Below, piece by piece: positions 2,124 through 14,284 of a stretch of DNA of 14,561 nucleotides. How positions within the stretch are numbered: the first letter of the stretch is position 1; each line of letters begins with the position of its first letter. Source of the DNA: Sulfurimonadaceae bacterium (lineage in GTDB: Bacteria; Campylobacterota; Campylobacteria; Campylobacterales; Sulfurimonadaceae); NCBI GenBank assembly GCA_041571435.1, contig JBFFUI010000048.1:1-14561 (forward strand), read 5' to 3'. The position numbers and the translations under genes are program-made. The notes below the pieces were generated by a model. The model did not search any database. It worked only from the letters and a program-made list of their open reading frames with translations, and was not told the origin of the DNA.

Positions 2124-2582
2124 TTATTTCGCCGTTATCCCCTGCCAAATGGCGCTGAAAAGCAGCCAGAGCAGGTAGAAGCCCAAGAGCTGGAGCAGGG
2201 CGAAGGCGGCCAGTTTGACCCAGACAAAAAGCGTCCACCCCTCTACGATGAGAAACCCGCTGAAGATGTCGAGGAGGGCGACGGCGAAGAGGGCGATGAC
2301 CGGTTTGACGGCACGGCGTTTTTTCTCCTTGGCGGCGAAGAGGAGGAAGTGGGCGGTGACCATGACGAAGAGGCCCATGGAGCCGAGGTGCGGCAGGGCG
2401 ACCTCCAGGAGGCCGTAGCTGCTTTTGGCGGTGGTGAAGAGGGCTTCGCTGCCGAGGTAGTAGCTCTCGACCGAGGCGTAGGAGAAGCCAATCTTGCTAA
2501 AAAAAAGCAGCGCGCCGCTGGCGAGCAGCAGTGCGCCGAAGAGGGCGAAGTAGGCGATGGCGTAGCGGTAGCTCTGGTGCAT
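2124..2582 (-). CDS. Inner-membrane protein B (about 4 TM), paralogue of 2582-3073; H65 and H78 on one helix
   Basis: 152-aa hydrophobic ORF containing YYLGSE..F....S.YGLLEVALPHLGSMGLFVMVTAH. Its start overlaps the upstream stop (TAATG). Confidence 0.8.
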   Translation of the reverse strand: MHQSYRYAIAYFALFGALLLASGALLFFSKIGFSYASVESYYLGSEALFTTAKSSYGLLEVALPHLGSMGLFVMVTAHFLLFAAKEKKRRAVKPVIALFAVALLDIFSGFLIVEGWTLFVWVKLAAFALLQLLGFYLLWLLFSAIWQGITAK

Positions 2583-3073
2583 TACTTTAGGTCGCTTTTT
2601 AGCGGGATAAAGAGGTAGAAGAGCGAGGCGAGCGTCATCATGATCGCCAGCAGGTGCCAGGTGTAGAAGGTGATGATGTAGGGGAGGATGAAGCTTGCCG
2701 ACACGTAGTACGCCAAGGGGAGCAGAATCACCGTCAAGAGTGCCGTTATCATCGTGGCGTTGATGTTGACGAGGCGCAGGCTTTTGTTCTGGCAGAGTCT
2801 GGCGTAGACGGCGCTGAGGGTGAGCAGGGTCATCATCATGAAGAAGATGTCGCTGTGCATCAGCTCAAGCAGAAAGTGCTCGCTTGCCGCTTCGATGTAC
2901 GCCTCTTCGTTGCCGTAGAGCGTCTGGCTGAGTGTGCTCTTAGTCAGACCGATATGGTTGCTTTTGAGCAGGACGTCGGCCGGAAGGAAGAGGAGTATAA
3001 AGAGCAGCAGACCGCCCAGAAGAGGGCGCATCAGGCTGTCGTTTTTAATGTCTTTGACAACGGTGAATTTCAT
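2582..3073 (-). CDS. Inner-membrane protein A (about 4 TM)
   Basis: 163-aa hydrophobic ORF containing LYGNEE.Y....SEHFLLELMHSDIFFMMM and TWH. The ATG directly abuts the upstream TAG. Confidence 0.8.
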   Translation of the reverse strand: MKFTVVKDIKNDSLMRPLLGGLLLFILLFLPADVLLKSNHIGLTKSTLSQTLYGNEEAYIEAASEHFLLELMHSDIFFMMMTLLTLSAVYARLCQNKSLRLVNINATMITALLTVILLPLAYYVSASFILPYIITFYTWHLLAIMMTLASLFYLFIPLKSDLK

Positions 3074-3595
3074 CTAGTGCTCTTTGAACAGCATCTCAAA
3101 GACGGCGAGGGCAAGACGGGCGCCGTCGGTGACGTTGCGCGCGCCCATGGTCGCACCGGTCACGGTCGGGATGTCCTTGCCGACACGTAGGGTGTCTTGC
3201 GCGCTTTTGCCTTTGAACTGGTCGACGTAGGTTTTGGTCGGGGTGTATTCCGGCGGTTCGTTAAAAGCGATCACTTCGACGCCGTCGATGACCCCTTCGG
3301 GCGAGATCATGTAGAGCACCGCGGCATCTTTGGTGCGGACAATGCGCGAGATGAGAATGGCGTAGGCAATGACCTTGCCGTTTTTGCGCACCGTGAAGGT
3401 TCGAAAGATCTTGCCCCCTTTTTTCATCTTGGCCTGTCTGTAGACCCTGTCCGCTTTGTCGACCGTCAAAAGAACATTCTTCTTCTCTATCTTGGCATCC
3501 TCGCCGTAGACGGCATGAATGGCGTCAAAAGGCGTTACAAGCAGTTTGGCCTGCAGTGAGGTGATGACAAACAGCGTTAGTAGTAGGTAGCGCAT
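3074..3595 (-). CDS. Exported FMN-binding domain protein (RnfG/NqrC-like fold, flavinylation substrate)
   Basis: Signal peptide MRYLLLTLFVITSLQA. Motifs G.I..VEVIAFNEPPEY, QFKGK and DIPTVTGATMGA, the last matching the [S/T]GA[S/T] ApbE target. Alternative TTG start at 3598. Confidence 0.85.
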   Translation of the reverse strand: MRYLLLTLFVITSLQAKLLVTPFDAIHAVYGEDAKIEKKNVLLTVDKADRVYRQAKMKKGGKIFRTFTVRKNGKVIAYAILISRIVRTKDAAVLYMISPEGVIDGVEVIAFNEPPEYTPTKTYVDQFKGKSAQDTLRVGKDIPTVTGATMGARNVTDGARLALAVFEMLFKEH

Positions 3596-3652
3596 CAATA
3601 TAGTCTCTCTTTTTTCACAGTTTTTCCAATATTAACATAAAGCCGAGGCGGG

Positions 3653-4939
3653 TTAGAAGATAAAACCCATCCCCAGGCTGAAGGTGTTGTAATCCGTACC
3701 GCCGGTCAGATCGTCCGTCATGGCATAATCGGCTTTCAGAACGACCTGCTCGTGCGGAAAGTAGTTGACGCCGACCGTGGTTGTCGCGGTCTCGCCGATG
3801 TCTTTGTCGACTGTTGCCGCCGTGGCATCGACGACCGTCGATGCAGGGTTGATGTAGTCGTACTGTACAAAGAGCGGGAGTCTGTCCGTTGTCGACAGCA
3901 TGGCCAGAGCATCATACTCCAGGTTCAGGTAGTAACCGTTGGACGCTTCGATCGATGTCGGACCGTAGGTCGGCTCGGCTGCGATGTTCTCGGCACCCGA
4001 GATCGATGTCGCGCCATACAGGGCTTTGGCTTTGAAACCCGAGAGCTCATAAGTGGCATGAAGGTCATAGATGAGGGCATCTGCACCCGAGACACTGCCT
4101 TGCGTCGCACTGCCGTAGTAGAGCGATGCGCCGAGCAGGAGACCGTTGAGACCTCTGTAGTCAAGTCGTCCGACAAAGGCGCCTTGCTCAAAGGCTGACT
4201 TTCCGGTTGAACCGGCACGCCCTTCGCGGATCTGTCCGTTTGTCCCGTTATCGGCGTTATTGAGCTCAAGTGCCTGGATGAGACCGGCGTTGTAGCTGAG
4301 CCCCGTCTCGCCGAATGTTCCGTAGGCCATTGCCCCTGTAGAGTGCCACGTCGCCGGGATGATGTACTTTTCCATCAAAGGTTTCTGCACCGTGTTATAC
4401 AAGGTCGGTTCGTGGCGCATGTTGATAAGCCCCATCGGCACCAGGAGGTGGCCAAGCTGGACGTTGAATGCCTGGTACATCAGGAAGTCGAGGTACATAA
4501 ACTCGACGATCGCGTAGCCTTCCGGCTTGATCATCTCGGGGTTGGCACCGCCGTGTTCGAACTCTATCTCGGTGTTGAGGATAATGTTCTCCGTGAACTT
4601 GTAGCCGATGTACGGCACAAAGTGGTAAACGTCGGCTACATTGCTTGCGCCGGGTCTGTCACTGCTGGCAAAGTACATGTCACCGTAACCGCCGATAGAG
4701 AGCGAGGAGGATGATCTGTAGACCTTGGAGGCGGCTGCCCCCATCCCGTTGTGGGAGAACGCTGTGTCGACGGTTGTAAAACCGACCTGTGCATTTGAGG
4801 TCTCGTCAATGAGCGCCTCCTGGTTGGCCTGAAGTTCGGCGATCTGTTGTTTCAGTGTTTCGATTTCGGTATTGGTGTCCGCATGTACGGTAGTGGCGAT
4901 AAGTGCCGCTGCCGTCACTGCCAGTGCTGTTTTTTTCAT
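3653..4939 (-). CDS. Outer-membrane beta-barrel porin with N-terminal coiled coil
   Basis: Signal peptide ending VHA and coiled coil EIETLKQQIAELQANQ. Amphipathic strands (SIGGYGDMYF, YIGYKF, EIEFEHG, VEFMYLD, GVNYFPHEQVVLKADY) and C-terminal GMGFIF with terminal Phe. Confidence 0.85.
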   Translation of the reverse strand: MKKTALAVTAAALIATTVHADTNTEIETLKQQIAELQANQEALIDETSNAQVGFTTVDTAFSHNGMGAAASKVYRSSSSLSIGGYGDMYFASSDRPGASNVADVYHFVPYIGYKFTENIILNTEIEFEHGGANPEMIKPEGYAIVEFMYLDFLMYQAFNVQLGHLLVPMGLINMRHEPTLYNTVQKPLMEKYIIPATWHSTGAMAYGTFGETGLSYNAGLIQALELNNADNGTNGQIREGRAGSTGKSAFEQGAFVGRLDYRGLNGLLLGASLYYGSATQGSVSGADALIYDLHATYELSGFKAKALYGATSISGAENIAAEPTYGPTSIEASNGYYLNLEYDALAMLSTTDRLPLFVQYDYINPASTVVDATAATVDKDIGETATTTVGVNYFPHEQVVLKADYAMTDDLTGGTDYNTFSLGMGFIF

Positions 4940-4960
4940 TGTTAAGCCTTTAATTCATTA

Positions 4961-4975
4961 TGATAATCGTTTTCA
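4961..4975. promoter_or_regulatory. Fur-family box 1
   Basis: TGATAAT-C-GTTTTCA, two mismatches to the 7-1-7 consensus TGATAATnATTATCA, in the porin 5' UTR. Confidence 0.7.
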
Positions 4976-4994
4976 CAATTAAATTTATGCCGAT

Positions 4995-5023
4995 ATCGTA
5001 CCACTGAATTAAAAGTTTGTCAA
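4995..5023 (-). promoter_or_regulatory. Sigma70 promoter of the porin operon
   Basis: TTGACA (5023-5018), 17-nt spacer ending TGG, TACGAT (5000-4995): perfect -35 plus extended -10. Confidence 0.75.
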
Positions 5024-5029
5024 TAGTTT

Positions 5030-5044
5030 TGAGACTTATTATCA
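5030..5044. promoter_or_regulatory. Fur-family box 2
   Basis: TGAGACT-T-ATTATCA, two mismatches, just upstream of the -35. Confidence 0.65.
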
Positions 5045-5080
5045 ATATATAAATTAAAAGAGGCACTTTTCTTTTGCCGG

Positions 5081-5097
5081 TGTAACTAAACGTTACA
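5081..5097. promoter_or_regulatory. Inverted repeat, possible second regulator site
   Basis: TGTAAC-TAAAC-GTTACA, a perfect 6-5-6 dyad 4 nt from Fur box 3. Confidence 0.4.
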
Positions 5098-5101
5098 ATA
5101 G

Positions 5102-5116
5102 TGATAATTATTATCA
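5102..5116. promoter_or_regulatory. Fur-family box 3 (perfect)
   Basis: TGATAAT-T-ATTATCA, an exact 7-1-7 Fur consensus. Confidence 0.8.
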
Positions 5117-5234: not shown

Positions 5235-5414
5235 TTAGATGTCACACTTTTTAGTGATAAGACAAAGCGGGCAGAAGTTGACCAGACCCGCGATCAATGG
5301 TGCAACGCCAAGGTAGAACCAAGGGTTACCTGTAAAAACAGCGGTAGCGATCAGTGCAAGACCGACAACGATACGGAATGGGCGGCATACGGCTTTGATT
5401 TTCATAACATTCAT
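5235..5414 (-). CDS. DUF2892 (YgaP-like) small membrane protein, 59 aa
   Basis: R.FRIVVGLALI...W.YLG..PLIAGLVNFCPLC pattern. AGGAG RBS before the ATG at 5414 and TATAAT at 5456-5451. Confidence 0.85.
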   Translation of the reverse strand: MNVMKIKAVCRPFRIVVGLALIATAVFTGNPWFYLGVAPLIAGLVNFCPLCLITKKCDI

Positions 5415-5551
5415 AAATATTCTCCTGTGCGTCTTTATAGTAATGGCGGGATTATACCGAAAATATATCAAATATATAAATCATTTATGCATTTTATCAT
5501 AATTTATTAAGTGAAGGTCAAGCGGCCAAAGCGCCGAGAAAGGTGTCGGTG

Positions 5552-5953
5552 TCAGAAGAGAGAGATCGGTGTCAATGCAAAAAAGACCAGCGGTGTGTAG
5601 ACAAGAACAGAGAGGTAGGGCATCAGCGGGTGGAGCGGTGCGAGCAGCATAGCCGACATCTCGGGTGAGATCTCCTGTTTTTCGAAGATCTGCTGAATCA
5701 GCAGGATCTTGGTCGCCATATCGACGGTTTTGATGAAGACAAGGACAACGGCAGCGAAGGCAAGATCGGTGATCATGGCCAGCCCGATACCGAAATAGAA
5801 CGTCGGGTGCATGAGAAAAAAGAGGATGATGTTTTTGTTGTAGTAGCGGTAGAGCCTGCTCAAAATACCGATAAGGTTTTTTGCTTTCTGCCACTGTATC
5901 TCAAAGAGCTCCAGGGCAATATAGATGATTACGAGTACATAGATGTTTTCCAT
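5552..5953 (-). CDS. Hypothetical membrane protein, 133 aa
   Basis: Hydrophobic ORF with ELFEIQWQKA, FFLMHPTFYF and IKTVD..TK. ATG start, fills the intergenic space. Confidence 0.75.
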   Translation of the reverse strand: MENIYVLVIIYIALELFEIQWQKAKNLIGILSRLYRYYNKNIILFFLMHPTFYFGIGLAMITDLAFAAVVLVFIKTVDMATKILLIQQIFEKQEISPEMSAMLLAPLHPLMPYLSVLVYTPLVFFALTPISLF

Positions 5954-6024: not shown

Positions 6025-6756
6025 ATGATCGAATACTATATAACCACCGACGACGAGAGTTCTGTCAAGACTGAACTCGAGATGGATTACGTCGACACGG
6101 CACCGCAAGAAGAGCGTCCATGGCTTTTGTGGGGCTTTTTAAAGATGCATGAGGTCGATGAAGAGGGCTTCCCGACGCCGTCTGAACTTGAGAGACTACA
6201 ACCGGTAACAGATGCGTTGAAAGAGACTCTTGCCAAAGAGATCGACGCGGTCAGTGTCGGTCAAAAGTATGAAGAGGGCTGGCTTGAACTTTACTTCTAT
6301 GCGCCGACGGCCAAAAAATTTCAGAGTATCGTCGCATCCGTTCTGGGTTCAGACTACGTTAGTGACATCGGTTCGGCCAGAGATACAAAGTGGGAACACT
6401 ACCTCTACACGCTCTATCCGGATGCTTTGATGCTCCAGCAGGTACAGAGCCGTCACATCATGGATGAGCTTAAAGAGGCGGGGGATGACCTCTCTGTCGA
6501 ACGTGAAGTGGAACACTACCTGGGCTTTCTGACAGAGAGCAATGCCAAGCGCGTCGCCGAGATCCTCTACCTGCACGGCTTCAAAGAGAAAGAGATCTCC
6601 TATAACAGCAGTGAAGAGTACGGCTACACCCTCATCATGACAAAAGAGCACGCCATCGATGCGGCGCTTTTGGAAGAGCTGGCTTTTCTGCTCATCACGA
6701 CGGTTGAGAAAGAGCACGGCATCTATGCGGGTTGGAGTACAGGGGTCGCTGCTTGA
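6025..6756 (+). CDS. DUF695 domain protein with C-terminal RraB-like domain
   Basis: Acidic protein. N-terminal GFP...E...L, ELYFYA and D.KW..Y...LYP. C-terminal GDDLSVEREVEHYLGF ... HGIYAGW is RraB-like. Confidence 0.8.
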   Translation: MIEYYITTDDESSVKTELEMDYVDTAPQEERPWLLWGFLKMHEVDEEGFPTPSELERLQPVTDALKETLAKEIDAVSVGQKYEEGWLELYFYAPTAKKFQSIVASVLGSDYVSDIGSARDTKWEHYLYTLYPDALMLQQVQSRHIMDELKEAGDDLSVEREVEHYLGFLTESNAKRVAEILYLHGFKEKEISYNSSEEYGYTLIMTKEHAIDAALLEELAFLLITTVEKEHGIYAGWSTGVAA

Positions 6757-8585
6757 AAGAGATGTTCAAGATCAAAGGCACCTATGCCTACATCGTAGCG
6801 CTGTTTTTAAATGCCTTTACCGATCTTGGACATAAGATCATTATCCAGAACACCGTCTTCAAGATCTATGACAACCAGGAGCAGATCATCCTGACAGCCA
6901 TCGTCAACGCACTGATCCTGCTGCCGTTCATCATGGTCTTTACGCCCGCAGGTTTTCTCTCGGACAAGTACCCTAAAAACAGGGTGATGGTCTTTGCCGC
7001 CGTGTTGGCGGTCTTCCTTACGCTGGCCATCACGGCGTCGTATTACATGGGGTGGTTCGAAGTGGCCTTCGGGTTTACCTTTCTTTTGGCAATGCAGAGC
7101 GCGATCTATTCGCCTGCCAAGTACGGCTACATCAAAGAGCTTGTCGGAAACAAGTTCATCTCGGCAGGTAATGCCGCAGTACAGGCGGCAACGACAGTCG
7201 CTATCCTCTCTGGGATCGTCGTCTATACACTGCTGTTTGAAAACACATTGGGCACGTTTGAAGATGCGGATGAGATCTTGAAACAGGTGGCACCGCTGGG
7301 TTGGCTGCTGGTCCTGGGTTCACTTGTCGAACTCTTTATGATCTCCCGGCTTCCCAACAAGCAGCGTGTACCGTCTGCGAGACGGTTCCACCTCAGACGC
7401 TACCTTAGAGGCTACTATCTGCGTAAAAACATGAAGACCATTACACGCAAACGCTCTATTTTGGACGCGATCATCGCCCTCTCGATCTTCTGGGGCGTCT
7501 CGCAGGTCGCGCTGGCGATCTTCGGGGCGTATGCCAAAAACGAGCTGGCGATCGTTAACACCATCTATGTGCAAGGCGTACTGGGACTGACGGCAATAGG
7601 TATTATCTTCGGTTCGTTGGTGGCAGCACGGTTTTCCACGTATTACATCCATATGGGCCTCGTACCGTTCAGTGCTGTCGGCATGGCGGTCAGTCTCTTG
7701 CTGGTCCCGATGTCGGAGCATCTCAACACGATCGCGATTCTCTTTTTCACCTTCGGACTCTCTTCGGGCATGTTTATCGTGCCACTGAACGCGTTTATCC
7801 AGAAACATGCACCCGGTGTACACCTTGGTACCATCATTGCCGGGAACAACTTTATTCAAAACATCTTTATGGTGACGTTTTTGATGTTAACGACATTTTT
7901 CGCCTATAAAGGACTCAATGCAGGCGCTCTCTTTTACGTCATTTCTGCATTGAGCGGCTTGATGGCACTCTATCTGATCCGAAAATATGGCATTATATTA
8001 ACATGGTTTGTTGTCGAGCTCTTTTTGTCCGTCCGCTATAAGTTTGTCAACATCAACAGTAGCAATGTACCGCCAAGCGGTGCCGTGTTGCTGTTGGGCA
8101 ACCACGTCAGCTGGATCGACTGGATGATCGTCCAGTTCCCGATCGAGAGACGTACTATCTTTATGATGGAGAGAGGTATCTACAACTGGCCGTTACTGAA
8201 CCGTTTTTTCAGGTGGGGGAGTGCGATCCCTATTTCGGTCAAGGCCTCAAAAGATGCCTTTCGCAAGGCCAAAGAGTGTATTCGCCATCATGCGCTGGTT
8301 ACGCTGTTTCCAGAGGGTTCCATCAACAGGGAAGAAGAACTGCAGAAGTTTCAGCGGGGATTTGAGATGGTCGCTAGAGAGAGTGACGGTGTGATCGTCC
8401 CTTTTTATATCGGGGGGATGTGGGGCAGCCGCTATTCGCGGTCGCCCAAGAAGTATGTTGAACAAAGAGAGACGCTGCGCCGTAAAGTGACCGTGATCTA
8501 CGGTGATCCCATGCCGATGAACTCGTCAGCGGATGACGTCAGAGCAGCGGTACAAAAACTGAAGGATGACTATTATGCACAATAA
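6753..8585 (+). CDS. MFS lysophospholipid transporter (LplT-like) fused to PlsC-type acyltransferase; Aas-like but without the acyl-ACP synthetase domain
   Basis: N-terminal FLNAFTD, GFLSDKYPK and QSAIYSPAKYG with about 12 TM. C-terminal NHVSWID (HX4D) and FPEG. Start is TTG 6753 (overlapping the upstream TGA) or ATG 6762. Confidence 0.9.
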   Translation: MKEMFKIKGTYAYIVALFLNAFTDLGHKIIIQNTVFKIYDNQEQIILTAIVNALILLPFIMVFTPAGFLSDKYPKNRVMVFAAVLAVFLTLAITASYYMGWFEVAFGFTFLLAMQSAIYSPAKYGYIKELVGNKFISAGNAAVQAATTVAILSGIVVYTLLFENTLGTFEDADEILKQVAPLGWLLVLGSLVELFMISRLPNKQRVPSARRFHLRRYLRGYYLRKNMKTITRKRSILDAIIALSIFWGVSQVALAIFGAYAKNELAIVNTIYVQGVLGLTAIGIIFGSLVAARFSTYYIHMGLVPFSAVGMAVSLLLVPMSEHLNTIAILFFTFGLSSGMFIVPLNAFIQKHAPGVHLGTIIAGNNFIQNIFMVTFLMLTTFFAYKGLNAGALFYVISALSGLMALYLIRKYGIILTWFVVELFLSVRYKFVNINSSNVPPSGAVLLLGNHVSWIDWMIVQFPIERRTIFMMERGIYNWPLLNRFFRWGSAIPISVKASKDAFRKAKECIRHHALVTLFPEGSINREEELQKFQRGFEMVARESDGVIVPFYIGGMWGSRYSRSPKKYVEQRETLRRKVTVIYGDPMPMNSSADDVRAAVQKLKDDYYAQ

Positions 8586-8943
8586 GCCGAAACACAACCT
8601 GTTCAAGAACACCGTTTATGCGCTGGAAGGTCTTGTCGATATCACCAAACATGAGGCCTCTTTTAAGTGGCAGATACTGCTGTTTGTTACAGGGATTGTC
8701 GTTGCCTGGGCTTTGCCGATAGAGATAGGCTATAAATTTGTGTTGAGCATCTCATTGATCATTCCGGTGATGGCCGAGATCATCAACAGTGCGATCGAAC
8801 GCGTCGTCGACCTTGTCACACAGGACTATCACATCCTGGCCAAACAGGCGAAAGATGCCGGTGCTGCGATCGTATTTGTCTCCCTGGTGACTTTGGCCGC
8901 TATCTGGATATCTACCCTTCTTTTAGCCTTTAAATTGGTATAA
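8575..8943 (+). CDS. dgkA: Diacylglycerol kinase
   Basis: Motifs YALEGL, E.SF, EIINSAIERVVDL and LAKQAKDAGAAIV. AAGGA RBS before the ATG at 8575. Confidence 0.93.
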   Translation: MHNKPKHNLFKNTVYALEGLVDITKHEASFKWQILLFVTGIVVAWALPIEIGYKFVLSISLIIPVMAEIINSAIERVVDLVTQDYHILAKQAKDAGAAIVFVSLVTLAAIWISTLLLAFKLV

Positions 8944-8977: not shown

Positions 8978-10159
8978 ATGTCAACTGTTTTGATTATAGG
9001 CGCCGGCGGCGTCGGCGGTGTAGTGACACACAAATGTGTGATGAACAAAGAGACGTTTACTAAGATCGTCTTGGCGAGTCGTCGTCTGGAGAGCTGCGAG
9101 AAGATACAGAAGCAATTGCCCGAGGGTGCGATCGAGATCGCGCAGGTCGATGCGGACAATGTGGATGAAACAGCGGCTTTGATCGAGAAAGTCGGTGCCG
9201 ACATCGTTATCAACGTCGCTCTTCCATACCAGGACCTTAGCATCATGGATGCCTGTACAAAAGTCGGTGTTGATTACCTTGACACGGCCAACTACGAACA
9301 TCCGGACGAAGCGAAGTTCGAGTACAAAGAGCAGTGGGCGCGTGACGGCCAGTTCAAAGAGGCGAATATCATGGGTTTGCTCGGCAGCGGGTTCGATCCT
9401 GGAGCGACCAACATCTTCTGTGCCTACGCGCAAAAACACTACTTCGATGAGATCCATACCATCGACATTCTCGACTGCAACGCTGGTGACCACGGTTACC
9501 CGTTTGCAACGAACTTCAACCCGGAGATCAACCTTCGTGAAGTAAGTGCGAAAGGGCGCTACTGGGAAAACGGCAAGTGGATCGAGACAGAGCCGATGGA
9601 GATCCATATGTCATGGGATTACCCGGAGGTCGGCCCAAAAGAGAGCTATCTTCTCTATCACGAGGAGATGGAGTCACTGGTCAAGCACATCAAGGGACTC
9701 AAACGTATCCGTTTCTTTATGACCTTCGGCGAGAGCTACCTTATGCATATGAAGGCGCTTGAAAATGTCGGTATGCTGGGCATTGAACCGGTGGAACACA
9801 AAGGTCAGCAGATCATCCCGATAGAGTTTCTGAAGACACTTCTGCCTGACCCGGCTTCTCTGGGTCCGCGCACCAAAGGCAAGACCAACATCGGTATCGT
9901 TGCCGAGGGCCTAAAAGACGGTCAAAAGAAGAAGATCTACATCTACCAGGTGAGCGATCATGAGAAGTGCTACGCAGAGGTCATGTCACAGGCCGTCTCC
10001 TACACAACCGGTGTCCCGGCGATGATCGGCGCGAAGCTGATGCTTGATGGCAAGTGGCAGGGCAAAGGGGTCTTCAACATGGAAGAGTTTGACCCGGATC
10101 CGTTTATGGACGAACTCAACAAGCAGGGCCTTCCTTGGAAGGTCATTGAGCTGGATTAA
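8978..10159 (+). CDS. Carboxy(nor)spermidine dehydrogenase (saccharopine dehydrogenase family)
   Basis: Motifs IIGAGGVG, NVALPYQDL, YLDTANYE, GFDPG, FATNFNPEINLRE, YHEE and SYTTGVPAMIG; nspC lies nearby. Confidence 0.93.
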   Translation: MSTVLIIGAGGVGGVVTHKCVMNKETFTKIVLASRRLESCEKIQKQLPEGAIEIAQVDADNVDETAALIEKVGADIVINVALPYQDLSIMDACTKVGVDYLDTANYEHPDEAKFEYKEQWARDGQFKEANIMGLLGSGFDPGATNIFCAYAQKHYFDEIHTIDILDCNAGDHGYPFATNFNPEINLREVSAKGRYWENGKWIETEPMEIHMSWDYPEVGPKESYLLYHEEMESLVKHIKGLKRIRFFMTFGESYLMHMKALENVGMLGIEPVEHKGQQIIPIEFLKTLLPDPASLGPRTKGKTNIGIVAEGLKDGQKKKIYIYQVSDHEKCYAEVMSQAVSYTTGVPAMIGAKLMLDGKWQGKGVFNMEEFDPDPFMDELNKQGLPWKVIELD

Positions 10160-10364: not shown

Positions 10365-11339
10365 TTATTTTTCGCCGTCATCGGCTAATACTGTTAAATC
10401 TGTGGCATGTGAACTGTTCATATCCTCATTTGGGATCTCTAATGCGTCATTATTCTCTTTTTTACACTTTTCAGCAATTTCAGCAGCCGATTTTTTCTTG
10501 ACCGGAATCAGGTACTTTGGATCGGCAGGTTTGATGTTTTCCCAGCCCGGCGGCATATATTGCGGATCGTCAAGCGTATAGAACTTGTTGCTTTTGATCA
10601 CATAGTAGAGGCGCTTGACATACTCATGACGCAGCTCCGAATAGTGGTCAAGGTAGGGGATGATCTCAAACGGGTTGTCACTGTGCAGACGGGCTTCCCT
10701 AAACTGTTTATAGGCATGGCCTTTAGCCATCATGCGGTAGTACCCTTCGATGGAGGCCTCAAGGTTTTTATATTTTTTGACAAAGACGGTCTGTTTGCCG
10801 TGACGCTGGATACCGGCCGCCAAACGCGGCTCGTTTTTGTTATATGACCAGATACCGAAAATGTTGTTGGCTTCTCTGTAAAAGCGTGAGCTCCCCCATC
10901 CGGTTTCAAGTGCGGCCTGGGCGATAACGATGCTTACCGGGTGTGTTCTCAGACGTTTGAGTAGACAGGGTATACCTGCTACGTTGTAGCTCTTTTTCAA
11001 CTTCTCTATTTTTGCCGTTTCGGCCGGTGTGAGGCTCTTTTTCAGACTGAGCTCGTAGACCATCTGGTACTCTGCGTCAAGACGTTTTTTGACCTTTGTG
11101 ATGGCAGCGATGCTTTTCTTTAAAAACAGTCGCTTCGTCTCTGGCGTCGCAGCCGGGACTTTGTAAGCAGCTTTGTTGGCAGACGTTTTTTCCGCTTCTG
11201 TTGTCTTTTCGCTTGCAGTCGTTTTCTCGGTCGTTGTGTTGTGCTCATCAAATATGCCGGTCTTTAGAAGCGCGTTATAGACAAAATAGATGCTGACAAT
11301 TAAAAAAAAGGCCAAAACGGCCAAAATAGTCTGTTTCAT
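10365..11339 (-). CDS. Bax-like glucosaminidase (GH73-type) with N-terminal membrane anchor
   Basis: Motifs PVSIVIAQAALETGWGSSRF..EANNIFGIW, SIEGY, AYKQFREAR and L.HYSE...YV. N-terminal TM and a low-complexity acidic tail. Confidence 0.9.
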   Translation of the reverse strand: MKQTILAVLAFFLIVSIYFVYNALLKTGIFDEHNTTTEKTTASEKTTEAEKTSANKAAYKVPAATPETKRLFLKKSIAAITKVKKRLDAEYQMVYELSLKKSLTPAETAKIEKLKKSYNVAGIPCLLKRLRTHPVSIVIAQAALETGWGSSRFYREANNIFGIWSYNKNEPRLAAGIQRHGKQTVFVKKYKNLEASIEGYYRMMAKGHAYKQFREARLHSDNPFEIIPYLDHYSELRHEYVKRLYYVIKSNKFYTLDDPQYMPPGWENIKPADPKYLIPVKKKSAAEIAEKCKKENNDALEIPNEDMNSSHATDLTVLADDGEK

Positions 11340-11414: not shown

Positions 11415-12551
11415 ATGATAAATTACCATGATGTACCATCACCTTCTTATGTGTGCGACCTGACACGTTTGGAGAACAACTTGAAACTGTTAGCCCGGGT
11501 AAAAGAAGAGAGCGGTGCCCGGGTTATACTCGCACTCAAAGGGTTTGCCATGTGGTCCACCTTTGACCTTGTCGGTCAATATCTTGACGGTGCTACGGCA
11601 AGCGGTCTTCATGAGGCAAAACTTGCTCATGAAGAGTTAAAGGGAGAGGTCCACACCTATTCGCCGGCATTTAAAGAAGAAGAGATAGCGGAGATCGCGA
11701 CAATTTCAGACCATATCGTCTTTAATACACCTTCTCAGCTAAAACGGTTCGTGGCCAAGGTTAAGGCGGTCAATCCGGATATCTCGGTCTCTCTTCGTGT
11801 CAACCCTGAATTTTCATCGTCTCCTGTCGATCTTTATAATCCCTGCGGTATATACAGCCGGCTCGGGACGACGGCAGCGAATTTTGATGAGAGCATTTTG
11901 AAGGACCTTGACGGTTTGAACTTTCATGCACTTTGCGAACAGAATGTGGATGCGCTCGAAGGTGTGCTCGAAGCTTTCGAAGCAAAGTTCGGCAGCTATA
12001 TCGACACGATGAAATACATCAACTTCGGCGGCGGACACCACATTACCCGCAAAGATTACGACGTTGATCGCCTTATTGCGGTCATCAAAGCCTTTAGAGC
12101 ACGCCACAACAACATCGAGGTCTATTTGGAGCCGGGCGAAGCGGTCGGCTGGCAGACGGGTGAACTGGTTTCGACAGTTCTGGATGTTTTTCATAACGGC
12201 ATGGATGTCGCGATCCTGGACACCTCCGCAGAGGCCCATATGCCGGATACACTTGCGATGCCATATCGCGCGGACGTCCGCGGATCGGGTGAAGCAGGGG
12301 AGAAAGCCTATACCTACCGCTTAGGCGGTAACACCTGCCTTGCAGGTGACATTATGGGGGATTACTCATTTGACACGCCGTTACAGGTGGGCGATAAGAT
12401 CATCTTTGAAGACCAGATCCACTACACCTTTGTCAAGAACACGACCTTCAACGGCATCAAACTGCCATCTTTGGTCCTGGTAGACCAAAACGGTAAAATC
12501 AGGGTCGTAAAAGAGTTCGGTTATACGGACTATAAGATGCGCCTTTCCTGA
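11415..12551 (+). CDS. nspC: Carboxynorspermidine/carboxyspermidine decarboxylase
   Basis: Motifs LALKGF (PLP lysine), ASGLHEA, LRVNP, LYNPC..YSRLG, FHALCEQ, NFGGGHHIT, LEPGEA, HMPD, TCLAGD and HYT.VK.TTFNG. Confidence 0.95.
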   Translation: MINYHDVPSPSYVCDLTRLENNLKLLARVKEESGARVILALKGFAMWSTFDLVGQYLDGATASGLHEAKLAHEELKGEVHTYSPAFKEEEIAEIATISDHIVFNTPSQLKRFVAKVKAVNPDISVSLRVNPEFSSSPVDLYNPCGIYSRLGTTAANFDESILKDLDGLNFHALCEQNVDALEGVLEAFEAKFGSYIDTMKYINFGGGHHITRKDYDVDRLIAVIKAFRARHNNIEVYLEPGEAVGWQTGELVSTVLDVFHNGMDVAILDTSAEAHMPDTLAMPYRADVRGSGEAGEKAYTYRLGGNTCLAGDIMGDYSFDTPLQVGDKIIFEDQIHYTFVKNTTFNGIKLPSLVLVDQNGKIRVVKEFGYTDYKMRLS

Positions 12552-13806: not shown

Positions 13807-13910
13807 GTTTATCCTTATTGGACGGTATTTTAACATAGAGTTTTGTATAGAATATCCACACACCTTTAAGATATTTTAACTCAAAAAGAAATCCACTCTG
13901 TTTTAAGAGG

Positions 13911-13928
13911 TGTCATTTTATAATGACA
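13911..13928. promoter_or_regulatory. Palindromic operator candidate overlapping a -10 box upstream of the FTR gene
   Basis: TGTCATT-TTAT-AATGACA, containing TATAAT at 13919-13924. Confidence 0.5.
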
Positions 13929-13948
13929 GTAATAAAAAAAGGATTTGC

Positions 13949-14284
13949 ATGCAAAAAATTGACATGAGCTCACCGGAATTTTTAGCCGAGATGGAAAAAA
14001 CCAAAAAGTTTACAGACAAGGTCAACAAACAGTTTGGCTGGGTCTATAACCCGAACGAAGATGTAAATGAGGGCGTATTGATGGGCCTTGCCCGTCATAA
14101 AATGCTGTACGGCAAGCGTTACTGCCCATGCTTTATGGTCATCGAAGAGAACGGTAAGCATGTCAGTGCCGACAACCGTACCTGCCCATGTGCCCCGGCC
14201 ATCGAAAAAGAGATCCCGGAAGACGGCAAATGTCACTGCGGGATCTTCTGTACTCCGGAATACGCCGCCAATAACGATCAATAA
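13949..14284 (+). CDS. Ferredoxin-thioredoxin reductase catalytic (beta) domain protein
   Basis: CPC, CPC and CHC motifs (YGKRYCPC...TCPC...GKCHCGIF). AAGGA RBS before the ATG at 13949. Confidence 0.92.
   Translation: MQKIDMSSPEFLAEMEKTKKFTDKVNKQFGWVYNPNEDVNEGVLMGLARHKMLYGKRYCPCFMVIEENGKHVSADNRTCPCAPAIEKEIPEDGKCHCGIFCTPEYAANNDQ

Follow-up and report, generated by a model that had tools for sequence, protein, structure and literature searches.

This report concerns a four-gene operon on contig JBFFUI010000048.1 (C48) of a Sulfurimonadaceae genome of 66 contigs and 2,161,605 bases; the window referred to throughout is this whole contig, 14,561 bases in length. Four open reading frames (ORFs), all on the minus strand and arranged head to tail, encode a porin, a flavin mononucleotide (FMN)-binding protein and two small membrane proteins that we call memA and memB. 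They probably form a new route that carries electrons to the periplasm, and the role of this route is most likely the reduction of iron for uptake. In operon order, with lengths in amino acids (aa) and TM standing for transmembrane helix, the genes are:

3653-4939, minus strand: porin, an outer-membrane beta-barrel, 428 aa
3074-3598, minus strand: FMN protein, RnfG-like and predicted to be exported, 174 aa from a TTG start, with an ATG one codon on, at 3595
2582-3073, minus strand: memA, a 4-TM protein, very likely of the A-type of PF27139, 163 aa
2124-2582, minus strand: memB, a 4-TM protein, very likely of the B-type of PF27139, 152 aa

The porin and FMN genes are separated by 54 nucleotides (nt), the FMN gene abuts memA with a 0-nt gap (TAG/ATG), and memA overlaps memB by 1 nt (TAATG). 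An initial annotation of this stretch, made from its letters alone, had described four co-oriented genes, the last three joined by a 0-nt gap and a TAATG overlap, and both the coordinates and the junction letters agree with it. Nor did Pfam and NCBIfam return a single match to TonB, ABC, Feo, FTR1, Rnf or Nqr families among the window ORFs scanned, as expected from its description of an operon without such genes. An inverted repeat (AGGGGAT...ATCCCCT, 2101-2147) spans the memB stop codon with no T-run after it on the coding strand, and a terminator scan gave no site immediately 3' of memB.

Residues 94-164 of the FMN protein match the FMN_bind family of Pfam (PF04205) at 27.2 bits against a cut-off of 22, and this is the sole FMN_bind match in the genome. 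ApbE attaches FMN to [S/T]GA[S/T] motifs of RnfG/NqrC-like domains; here a TGAT motif occupies residues 147-150, Thr150 is the predicted site of flavinylation by ApbE, and all 18 orthologs compared keep G148, A149 and T150. A profile of the protein matches the RnfG structure 9eri_G in the Protein Data Bank (PDB) at E 4.5e-9, its GAT aligning with the flavinylated GST (ITGST) of RnfG and its NEPP with the RnfG NETP. By inspection there is an N-terminal hydrophobic signal ending LQA/K, and the protein reads as extracytosolic. The family match above cut-off, the TGAT and the N-terminal signal together bear out the exported FMN-binding protein of the initial annotation. It is not an rnfG product by the corresponding NCBIfam model (TIGR01947, 21.6 bits against a cut-off of 102), and other Rnf or Nqr subunits do not occur among the window ORFs scanned. 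The stretch FxEPxEYxP was considered as a metal site and dropped, since its counterpart in the RnfG alignment is the ordinary NETPG motif.

The two membrane proteins have no match of their own in Pfam (E <= 0.1) or NCBIfam. Their membership of PF27139 is very likely, judging from the annotation of homologs rather than from a direct model score: PF27139.1 is precomputed on 118 of the 120 listed memA homologs and on all 74 memB homologs, one of them 99% identical, and the protein-atlas clusters nearest memB carry PF27139, named Aq_1264_TM, in 99-100% of members. No paper was found under the PF27139 family names in the literature searched, and the cassette described here would give the family its first functional context. 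By hhalign memA is a paralog of memB, with a probability of 96.3% and E 1.6e-9 over 134 columns. Their AlphaFold models (mean pLDDT 88.6 and 92.0, respectively) are confident, each having four long helices plus, in loop 1, a short helix and one beta-bridge, and positive-inside charge counts indicate that both are N-in and C-in, placing loop 1 in the periplasm; in memA this loop is acidic, with a mean D+E of 5.4.

In a Campylobacterota-centred alignment the invariant residues are F3, G42, G54, L69, H73, F77, R92 and H140 of memA, and P64, H65 and H78 of memB, the two memB histidines both lying on TM2. A profile search of 1.84 billion representatives extended this comparison to 385 family members at E <= 0.001, from which 147 new representatives were examined. 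Across the superfamily, H65 and H78 of the B-type are invariant in 138/138 segments and H73 on TM2 of the A-type in 21/21, and R92 of memA is not conserved in distant members; the TM2 histidines are the sole superfamily-wide invariant residues. The intramembrane His, Glu, Asp and Met to which the initial annotation drew attention thus reduce to histidine, a Glu at the start of TM2 being common without being invariant. The two B-type histidines share one helix, at a spacing of 13 residues or about 19.5 Å, which resembles the inter-haem distance of di-haem membrane cytochromes. Twenty-two of the 147 representatives are tandem A-B fusions, with an A-like N-terminal and a B-like C-terminal half as in the gene order, and four of the 16 long representatives scanned (P0243, P0298, P0309 and P0314) are fused to a C-terminal ApbE, one as a 600-aa A-B-ApbE protein. 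One fusion cluster holds records named Aquifex aeolicus and Aquificaceae. Neither the Aquifex-type fusion P0229, searched against genome and metagenome contigs, nor the ApbE fusion P0298, searched against metagenome contigs, gave a match.

Profile scans placed the pair in no characterised system, in line with the initial annotation. A Pfam scan of 65 diverse PF27139 members showed no known family that recurs among them. The DUF4405 model, which represents one class of flavinylation-associated membrane cytochromes, finds matches elsewhere in the genome and none on contig C48, and when memA and memB were compared by hhalign with 12 DUF4405 proteins the probability never exceeded 4.4%, as against 96.3% for the control pair.

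Inspection of the porin shows a signal peptide, a short coiled-coil stretch near the N-terminus, and Phe as the last residue. Pfam returned neither Plug nor TonB_dep_Rec for it, and it does not qualify as a TonB-dependent receptor, in keeping with the initial annotation's beta-barrel without an evident plug; the genome's four TonB-dependent receptors are encoded elsewhere than the operon. Its only Pfam match is to OMP_b-brl, below threshold (E 3.7e-4, 21.1 bits against a cut-off of 28.7). In the language-model clusters nearest the porin, Porin_O_P is found in 20-47% of members; the porin itself has no Pfam match to Porin_O_P (PF07396) at E <= 0.1, and at E 0.11 its profile match to OprP (2o4v) falls short of significance. 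A Porin_O_P/OprP-like identity is accordingly offered as a lead only. Two other identities were dropped. A barrel of about 400 aa is too small for an MtrB-like sheath around the flavoprotein, and a flavinylated DUF3570 protein was set aside for want of a Pfam match and of any [S/T]GA[S/T] on reading the translation, the nearest to a flavinylation motif being TGAM and SGAE.

The region upstream of the porin was scanned with the Fur 7-1-7 consensus TGATAATNATTATCA and for promoters, and contains:

5102-5116, unstranded: perfect Fur-type box TGATAATTATTATCA, 0 mismatches, 163 nt upstream of the porin start
5030-5044, unstranded: Fur-type box, 2 mismatches, just 5' of the -35 hexamer and at about -105 relative to the porin ATG
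4995-5023, minus strand: sigma-70-type promoter TTGACA-17-TACGAT with extended TG, 10/12, a consensus match only
4961-4975, unstranded: Fur-type box, 2 mismatches, at about -36, after the -10 hexamer and before the porin start

The predicted promoter therefore sits between the two 2-mismatch boxes, and the near-consensus promoter with three Fur-type boxes, one of them perfect, that the initial annotation had reported is recovered in full. The window holds four boxes at <=3 mismatches where 0.73 are expected, a count that none of 200 shuffles reached. The box at 5102-5116 is the sole perfect match in the 2,161,605-base genome, and is without a positional counterpart in most relatives. Genome-wide, boxes at <=2 mismatches number only 18, and besides the three of the porin promoter they include one situated 19 nt upstream of feoA-feoB; in the window's genome this strict form of the box seems to be kept for the operon and feoAB. 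At 20 related loci, whose choice is given below, at least one box at <=2 mismatches occurs <=300 nt upstream of the porin in every case, usually as two boxes near -40 and -100. The distal one, at about -90 to -135, recurs in these 20 loci and the proximal one, at about -28 to -61, in 17 of them, L037, L038 and L039 being without the latter (nearest boxes at -109, -116 and -78). Over the 313,011 bases of the 20 loci, 34 of the 39 boxes at <=2 mismatches fall in the porin promoter. The elements of a Fur regulon are thus present at the level of sequence, namely an operator above chance at the promoter, a Fur gene in the genome and an operator that is kept in orthologous promoters and recurs at feoAB, and the predicted Fur control of the operon is well supported by phylogenetic footprinting.

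Conservation of the genes themselves was assessed by a six-frame search for memA in 401 Campylobacteria genomes. A match at E <= 0.001 was found in 31, of which 27, the window's genome included, are at E < 1e-7 and four are weak (2.7e-4 to 7.1e-4). Some 16 kb around 20 of the 26 strong relatives was then compared, from five families and eight genera; G030, G295, G321, G297, G390 and G032 were left out as their genera were already represented. By tblastn the porin, FMN protein and memA occur in the same order in all 20 loci and memB in 18, and the two remaining memB genes are present as ORFs with the PH...H motif, so that the order porin-FMN-memA-memB holds throughout. In 16 of the 20 the FMN gene and memA either overlap or directly adjoin. 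A survey of neighbourhoods had been put forward in the initial annotation as a check, and its outcome is that the four-gene order is kept in 20/20 loci, boxes are present in 20/20 and ApbE is linked in 25/27 genomes. Outside the Campylobacteria, all three full loci from Spirochaetota metagenome-assembled genomes have FMN protein-memA-memB in the same order, with FMN protein profile matches at E 1e-35 to 1e-38; no ApbE lies within 6 kb of these trio loci, and housekeeping genes occupy both flanks. The conserved core is thus the trio of flavoprotein, memA and memB, with the porin and the Fur-type boxes as features of the Campylobacteria loci. As the trio is kept in Spirochaetota without ApbE nearby, the membrane pair appears to go with the flavoprotein.

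Within the Campylobacteria the association with ApbE is close. ApbE is found in 38 of the 401 genomes, and all 27 genomes with a strong memA match carry it, 25 of them at no more than about 2.1 kb from memA; near the cassette apbE is mostly convergent and right behind memB. The exceptions are G341 and the window's genome, in which the one ApbE gene is on another contig (C15:944-1708) beside a HAD hydrolase and ferrochelatase. Because an apbE-HAD pair adjoins the cassette in L037 and L038, this arrangement suggests that a rearrangement in the window's lineage separated apbE from the cassette. The co-oriented row at C15:1-6000 comprises apbE, a PEBP-family gene, the HAD hydrolase, ferrochelatase, an alpha/beta hydrolase and a DAO-type flavin adenine dinucleotide (FAD) oxidoreductase. 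FMN_bind matches occur in 27 of the 401 genomes and adjoin memA in 23 of these; in G245, G393 and G341 the cassette FMN gene was missed by the Pfam model and found by tblastn. With 23 of 27 FMN_bind matches and 27 of 38 ApbE-positive genomes belonging to it, the cassette appears to be the main ApbE client, and so the main reason that Campylobacteria keep ApbE.

The same association lends itself to a different view, in which memA and memB would be an exporter of flavin (FAD, FMN or riboflavin) or a docking module for ApbE that supplies periplasmic flavinylation, while the FMN protein receives its electrons from a partner encoded elsewhere. The four ApbE fusions among the 16 long PF27139 representatives point this way, as do the convergent apbE right behind memB in most loci and the RibBA gene that adjoins ApbE in 6 of the 20 loci; flavin transporters are also known in apbE clusters, according to the available part of PMC11334425. 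We nevertheless regard flavin supply as unlikely. Eleven of the 38 ApbE-positive Campylobacteria genomes had no PF27139 memA match in these scans, the pair in Spirochaetota stays with the FMN protein where ApbE is not within 6 kb, and the translational coupling of the pair is with the FMN gene, not with apbE. It would be unusual for a transporter to have histidines as its only invariant residues.

It is also conceivable that the pair is a His-lined permease for Fe(II) or other divalent metals, with the flavoprotein reducing Fe(III) by means of electrons from elsewhere. Invariant intramembrane histidines, the acidic periplasmic loop of memA and the Fur-type control of the operon are all compatible with such a permease, but the membrane segments have no invariant acidic or Met residue, FeoAB is already in the genome behind a similar box, and neither the fusions to ApbE nor the housekeeping surroundings in Spirochaetota are easily reconciled with an importer. 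No similarity to any transporter family was found by Pfam for the window pair and 65 further members, and we judge a metal permease decidedly improbable. The initial annotation had left both roles to the membrane pair, supplying electrons and/or importing Fe(II). Given that only histidine is invariant, that ApbE fusions exist and that the trio occurs in Spirochaetota apart from porin and boxes, an electron (or flavin) role is favoured, and Fe(II) import is better assigned to FeoAB.

We propose, at slightly less than even odds (about 45%), that the operon is repressed by Fur and encodes a periplasmic reductase, flavinylated by ApbE, that receives electrons through a new heterodimeric conduit in the membrane, probably of haem-b type, and reduces Fe(III) from the porin for FeoAB. 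Under this proposal a Fur-family repressor would control an operon for a flavin-based periplasmic electron-transfer chain, and ApbE would covalently flavinylate the exported RnfG-like protein at Thr150. As paralogs of parallel topology (N-in, C-in), memA and memB would form an inner-membrane heterodimer that moves electrons from a membrane or cytoplasmic pool to the flavoprotein, most likely by way of a b-type haem between the subunits held by the invariant TM2 histidines. The reduced flavoprotein would in turn reduce Fe(III) species diffusing through the co-transcribed porin, and FeoAB, with a similar box at its promoter, would import the resulting Fe(II). What the sequences show is the gene content and order, their conservation and that of the boxes, the flavinylation motif, the linkage to ApbE, the paralogy and the natural fusions; that Fur and iron repress the operon, that the FMN protein is flavinylated, that the pair forms a heterodimer and binds haem, and in which direction and to which substrate the electrons flow, is what we infer.

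Three lines of argument lead to this proposal. By analogy with the characterised flavinylated systems, the flavoprotein would need a membrane partner to bring it electrons, and the PF27139 pair, whose translation is coupled to that of the flavoprotein, is the only candidate and so the probable partner. A haem-b conduit at the A/B interface is favoured because the sole invariant residues are histidines, matching cytochrome precedents, and because those of the B-type are about 19.5 Å apart: in the flavinylation-associated membrane cytochromes (PepSY-like, MsrQ-like, DUF4405 and FezC) histidines are the most conserved residues, and the haem sites of FezC are built by dimerisation, as far as the available text of PMC11334425 describes them. 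Reductive iron assimilation in Campylobacterota, finally, is suggested by the Fur-type boxes, the leading porin and the box at feoAB, along with two links in the literature, one being that flavinylation clusters are often tied to iron reduction (PMC8238504, in the part available) and the other a connection of ribBA and Fur with ferric reduction in H. pylori and C. jejuni (PMC6041382, a review, likewise in part). It is tempting to go further and to suppose that PF27139 proteins are unrecognised minimal transmembrane cytochromes b, with an interface haem and TM2 histidines (i/i+13 in the B-type), which feed an RnfG-like flavoprotein, and that addition of a porin and Fur control turned this module into reductive iron assimilation in Campylobacterota, where it is the main client of ApbE; we hold this broader idea as a tentative possibility.

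Several observations weigh against this proposal, and concern the membrane pair, the role of iron and the regulation in turn. For the pair, a search of the PDB with Foldseek gave no match at E <= 0.001 for memA or memB (E > 0.8), cytochrome b chains being present among the non-significant rows and given no weight, and VIA-align for memB returned generic four-helix bundles only (Z <= 11.5, below a meaningful level). Matches to Ni_hydr_CYTB were sub-threshold (E 1.6e-4 to 4.2e-4, 21-22 bits against 30.1) and confined to one group of closely related spirochaete proteins. Two bis-His haems need four histidines and only three are invariant across the superfamily, H140 of memA being Gln in 12 of 21 distant A-type halves. 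The four PF27139-ApbE fusions and the adjacency of RibBA fit flavin supply equally well. A haem device induced under iron shortage is one that costs iron. The Spirochaetota trio loci have neither a porin match nor a Fur-type box, so iron is not the universal function of the trio; the core module would be wider than iron uptake, and the link to iron specific to Campylobacterota.

As to regulation, none of the genome's four TonB-dependent receptor genes (on C13, C5, C22 and C36) has a box at <=3 mismatches within 400 nt upstream, for which reason the Fur regulon of this genome is not well defined, and among feoA loci in five relatives a box occurs <=100 nt upstream in 2 of 11 and <=1.4 kb in 5 of 11. 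The sole trace of RNA is one 268-nt contig over the FMN gene, from one sediment RNA library that contained 0.08 of the sampled words and gave two short contigs only. Box type alone cannot separate Fur from other Fur-family regulators, and the genome has two Fur-family genes, one beside cvpA (C11:33380-33745) and one beside a di-haem cytochrome c peroxidase gene (C43:15575-15913), an adjacency common for PerR genes, which suggests that the latter is PerR. The boxes might be targets of PerR or of some other Fur-family protein, and the system one of periplasmic oxidative-stress repair, similar to MsrPQ. This would accommodate the second Fur-family gene and the receptors without boxes (0/4). It would sit poorly with the same type of box 19 nt upstream of feoAB here and upstream of feoA in two relatives, with a consensus that is the classical Fur 7-1-7 operator, and with the lack of any linked Msr or peroxidase gene in the window and the 20 related loci; we think stress repair very improbable indeed.

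Three of the 20 related loci contain a fifth operon gene, a pentahaem cytochrome c that follows memB on the same strand and sits between memB and a convergent apbE-ribBA. Each encodes an exported cytochrome c with five CXXCH motifs (366-367 aa):

L041, 2437-3537, minus strand: pentahaem cytochrome c
L043, 6428-7528, minus strand: pentahaem cytochrome c
L044, 8935-10032, plus strand: pentahaem cytochrome c

The window's genome has only a weak relative of this protein, on contig C24 (21% identity, E 3e-6). These loci, together with Fur-type control, could indicate iron sparing, whereby an iron-rich periplasmic electron carrier of respiration, for instance a multihaem cytochrome, gives way under iron limitation to the flavoprotein with its membrane partner, and iron is not the substrate. 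The outline of PMC8238504, as available, includes a section on modular usage of flavinylation and cytochromes, and replacement of iron enzymes by flavoenzymes under iron restriction is covered in the part of the review PMC6041382 at hand. Iron sparing leaves unexplained why a dedicated porin should be the first gene in all 20 Campylobacteria loci, and no terminal reductase is linked to the cassette in the window or the 20 related loci; we find it improbable, and retain a reductase for iron uptake as the preferred reading.

Downstream of memB, all on the minus strand, are genes for a small exported protein with an Excalibur calcium-binding domain (1684-1935, just downstream of memB), a DUF4386 membrane protein (936-1559) and a rhodanese-domain protein (85-540). 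Upstream and on the plus strand, a DUF695/RraB-domain protein (6025-6756) is followed by an MFS-acyltransferase fusion (6732-8585) and a diacylglycerol kinase (8566-8943). Between the porin and the RraB-like gene are two genes for small membrane proteins, at 5235-5471 (with YgaP-like TM) and 5552-5953 (no family); L040, L042, L043 and L045, four of the 20 related loci, have an RraB-like gene next to the porin and divergent from it. Further along are a saccharopine-dehydrogenase-like protein (8978-10159, plus strand) and an Orn/DAP/Arg-decarboxylase-like protein (11415-12551, plus strand), a pairing reminiscent of the carboxy(nor)spermidine route of polyamine synthesis; a glucosaminidase-domain protein is encoded between them on the other strand (10365-11339). 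A homolog of the catalytic chain of ferredoxin-thioredoxin reductase is encoded at 13910-14284 (plus strand).

No description of the cassette was found in the literature searched; the large supplementary tables of the survey papers lay outside that search and may list the cluster as unclassified. The available texts of the surveys PMC8238504 and PMC11334425 do not mention a porin or a cluster of the Campylobacterota type, nor does the short supplementary text of PMC8238504, in the part available, mention Sulfurimonas, Sulfurovum, Campylobacterota or Epsilonproteobacteria. The conserved Fur-type boxes predict that the operon is de-repressed on iron chelation; confirmation of this would account for how sulfur-oxidising Campylobacterota of vents and sediments draw iron from oxidised sources without siderophore genes in the operon. 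The natural A-B and ApbE fusions are ready constructs for biochemistry.

Among known systems, that of the porin and FeoAB, with the riboflavin-linked ferric reduction of C. jejuni and H. pylori, shares with our proposal the diffusion through a porin, the extracytoplasmic reduction and the import of Fe(II) by Feo. In these two species riboflavin genes are linked to Fur and ferric reduction, according to the available parts of PMC6041382 and PMC7315122, and unlike the cassette their ferric reduction involves neither a dedicated flavinylated protein nor a PF27139 pair. In the two largest Campylobacteria families sampled, memA gave one match in 118 and one in 158 genomes, both at E > 1e-4 and unconvincing, so if C. 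jejuni and H. pylori belong to those families the cassette does not explain their reductase activity. The OprP/OprO phosphate-selective porins resemble the window porin in size (about 410-430 aa), in being beta-barrels and in their C-terminal Phe.

RnfG is the closest solved relative of the flavoprotein, and a comparison with Rnf and Nqr is instructive. In those complexes the flavinylated subunit takes electrons from a small paralogous membrane pair (RnfA-RnfE, NqrD-NqrE). The pair of the cassette is distinguished by its parallel topology and by conserved His in place of the Cys of an Fe-S site, and its flavoprotein differs from RnfG and NqrC in that the signal peptide appears, by inspection, to be cleavable, leaving no anchor. 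The wider set of ApbE-flavinylation systems (NapH-like, MsrQ-like, PepSY-like/FoxB, DsbD, Nqr/Rnf-like and DUF4405/FezC; Meheust et al. 2021, Huang et al. 2024) shares with the cassette an exported FMN_bind protein, the [S/T]GA[S/T] motif, a clustered apbE and a membrane partner encoded beside the flavoprotein in which His is most conserved, and several of its classes are tied to iron reduction and Fur. The cassette departs from them in having a porin in the operon and, as membrane partner, a pair of 4-TM PF27139 paralogs without detectable sequence relation to theirs. On sequence grounds, then, the system would belong to the known field of ApbE-flavinylated extracytosolic electron transfer, often for iron, with a membrane module that has no detectable relation to the classes described; the existing catalogue of flavinylated electron transfer outside the cytosol comprises a handful of membrane modules, and the cassette would add one unrelated to them in sequence.

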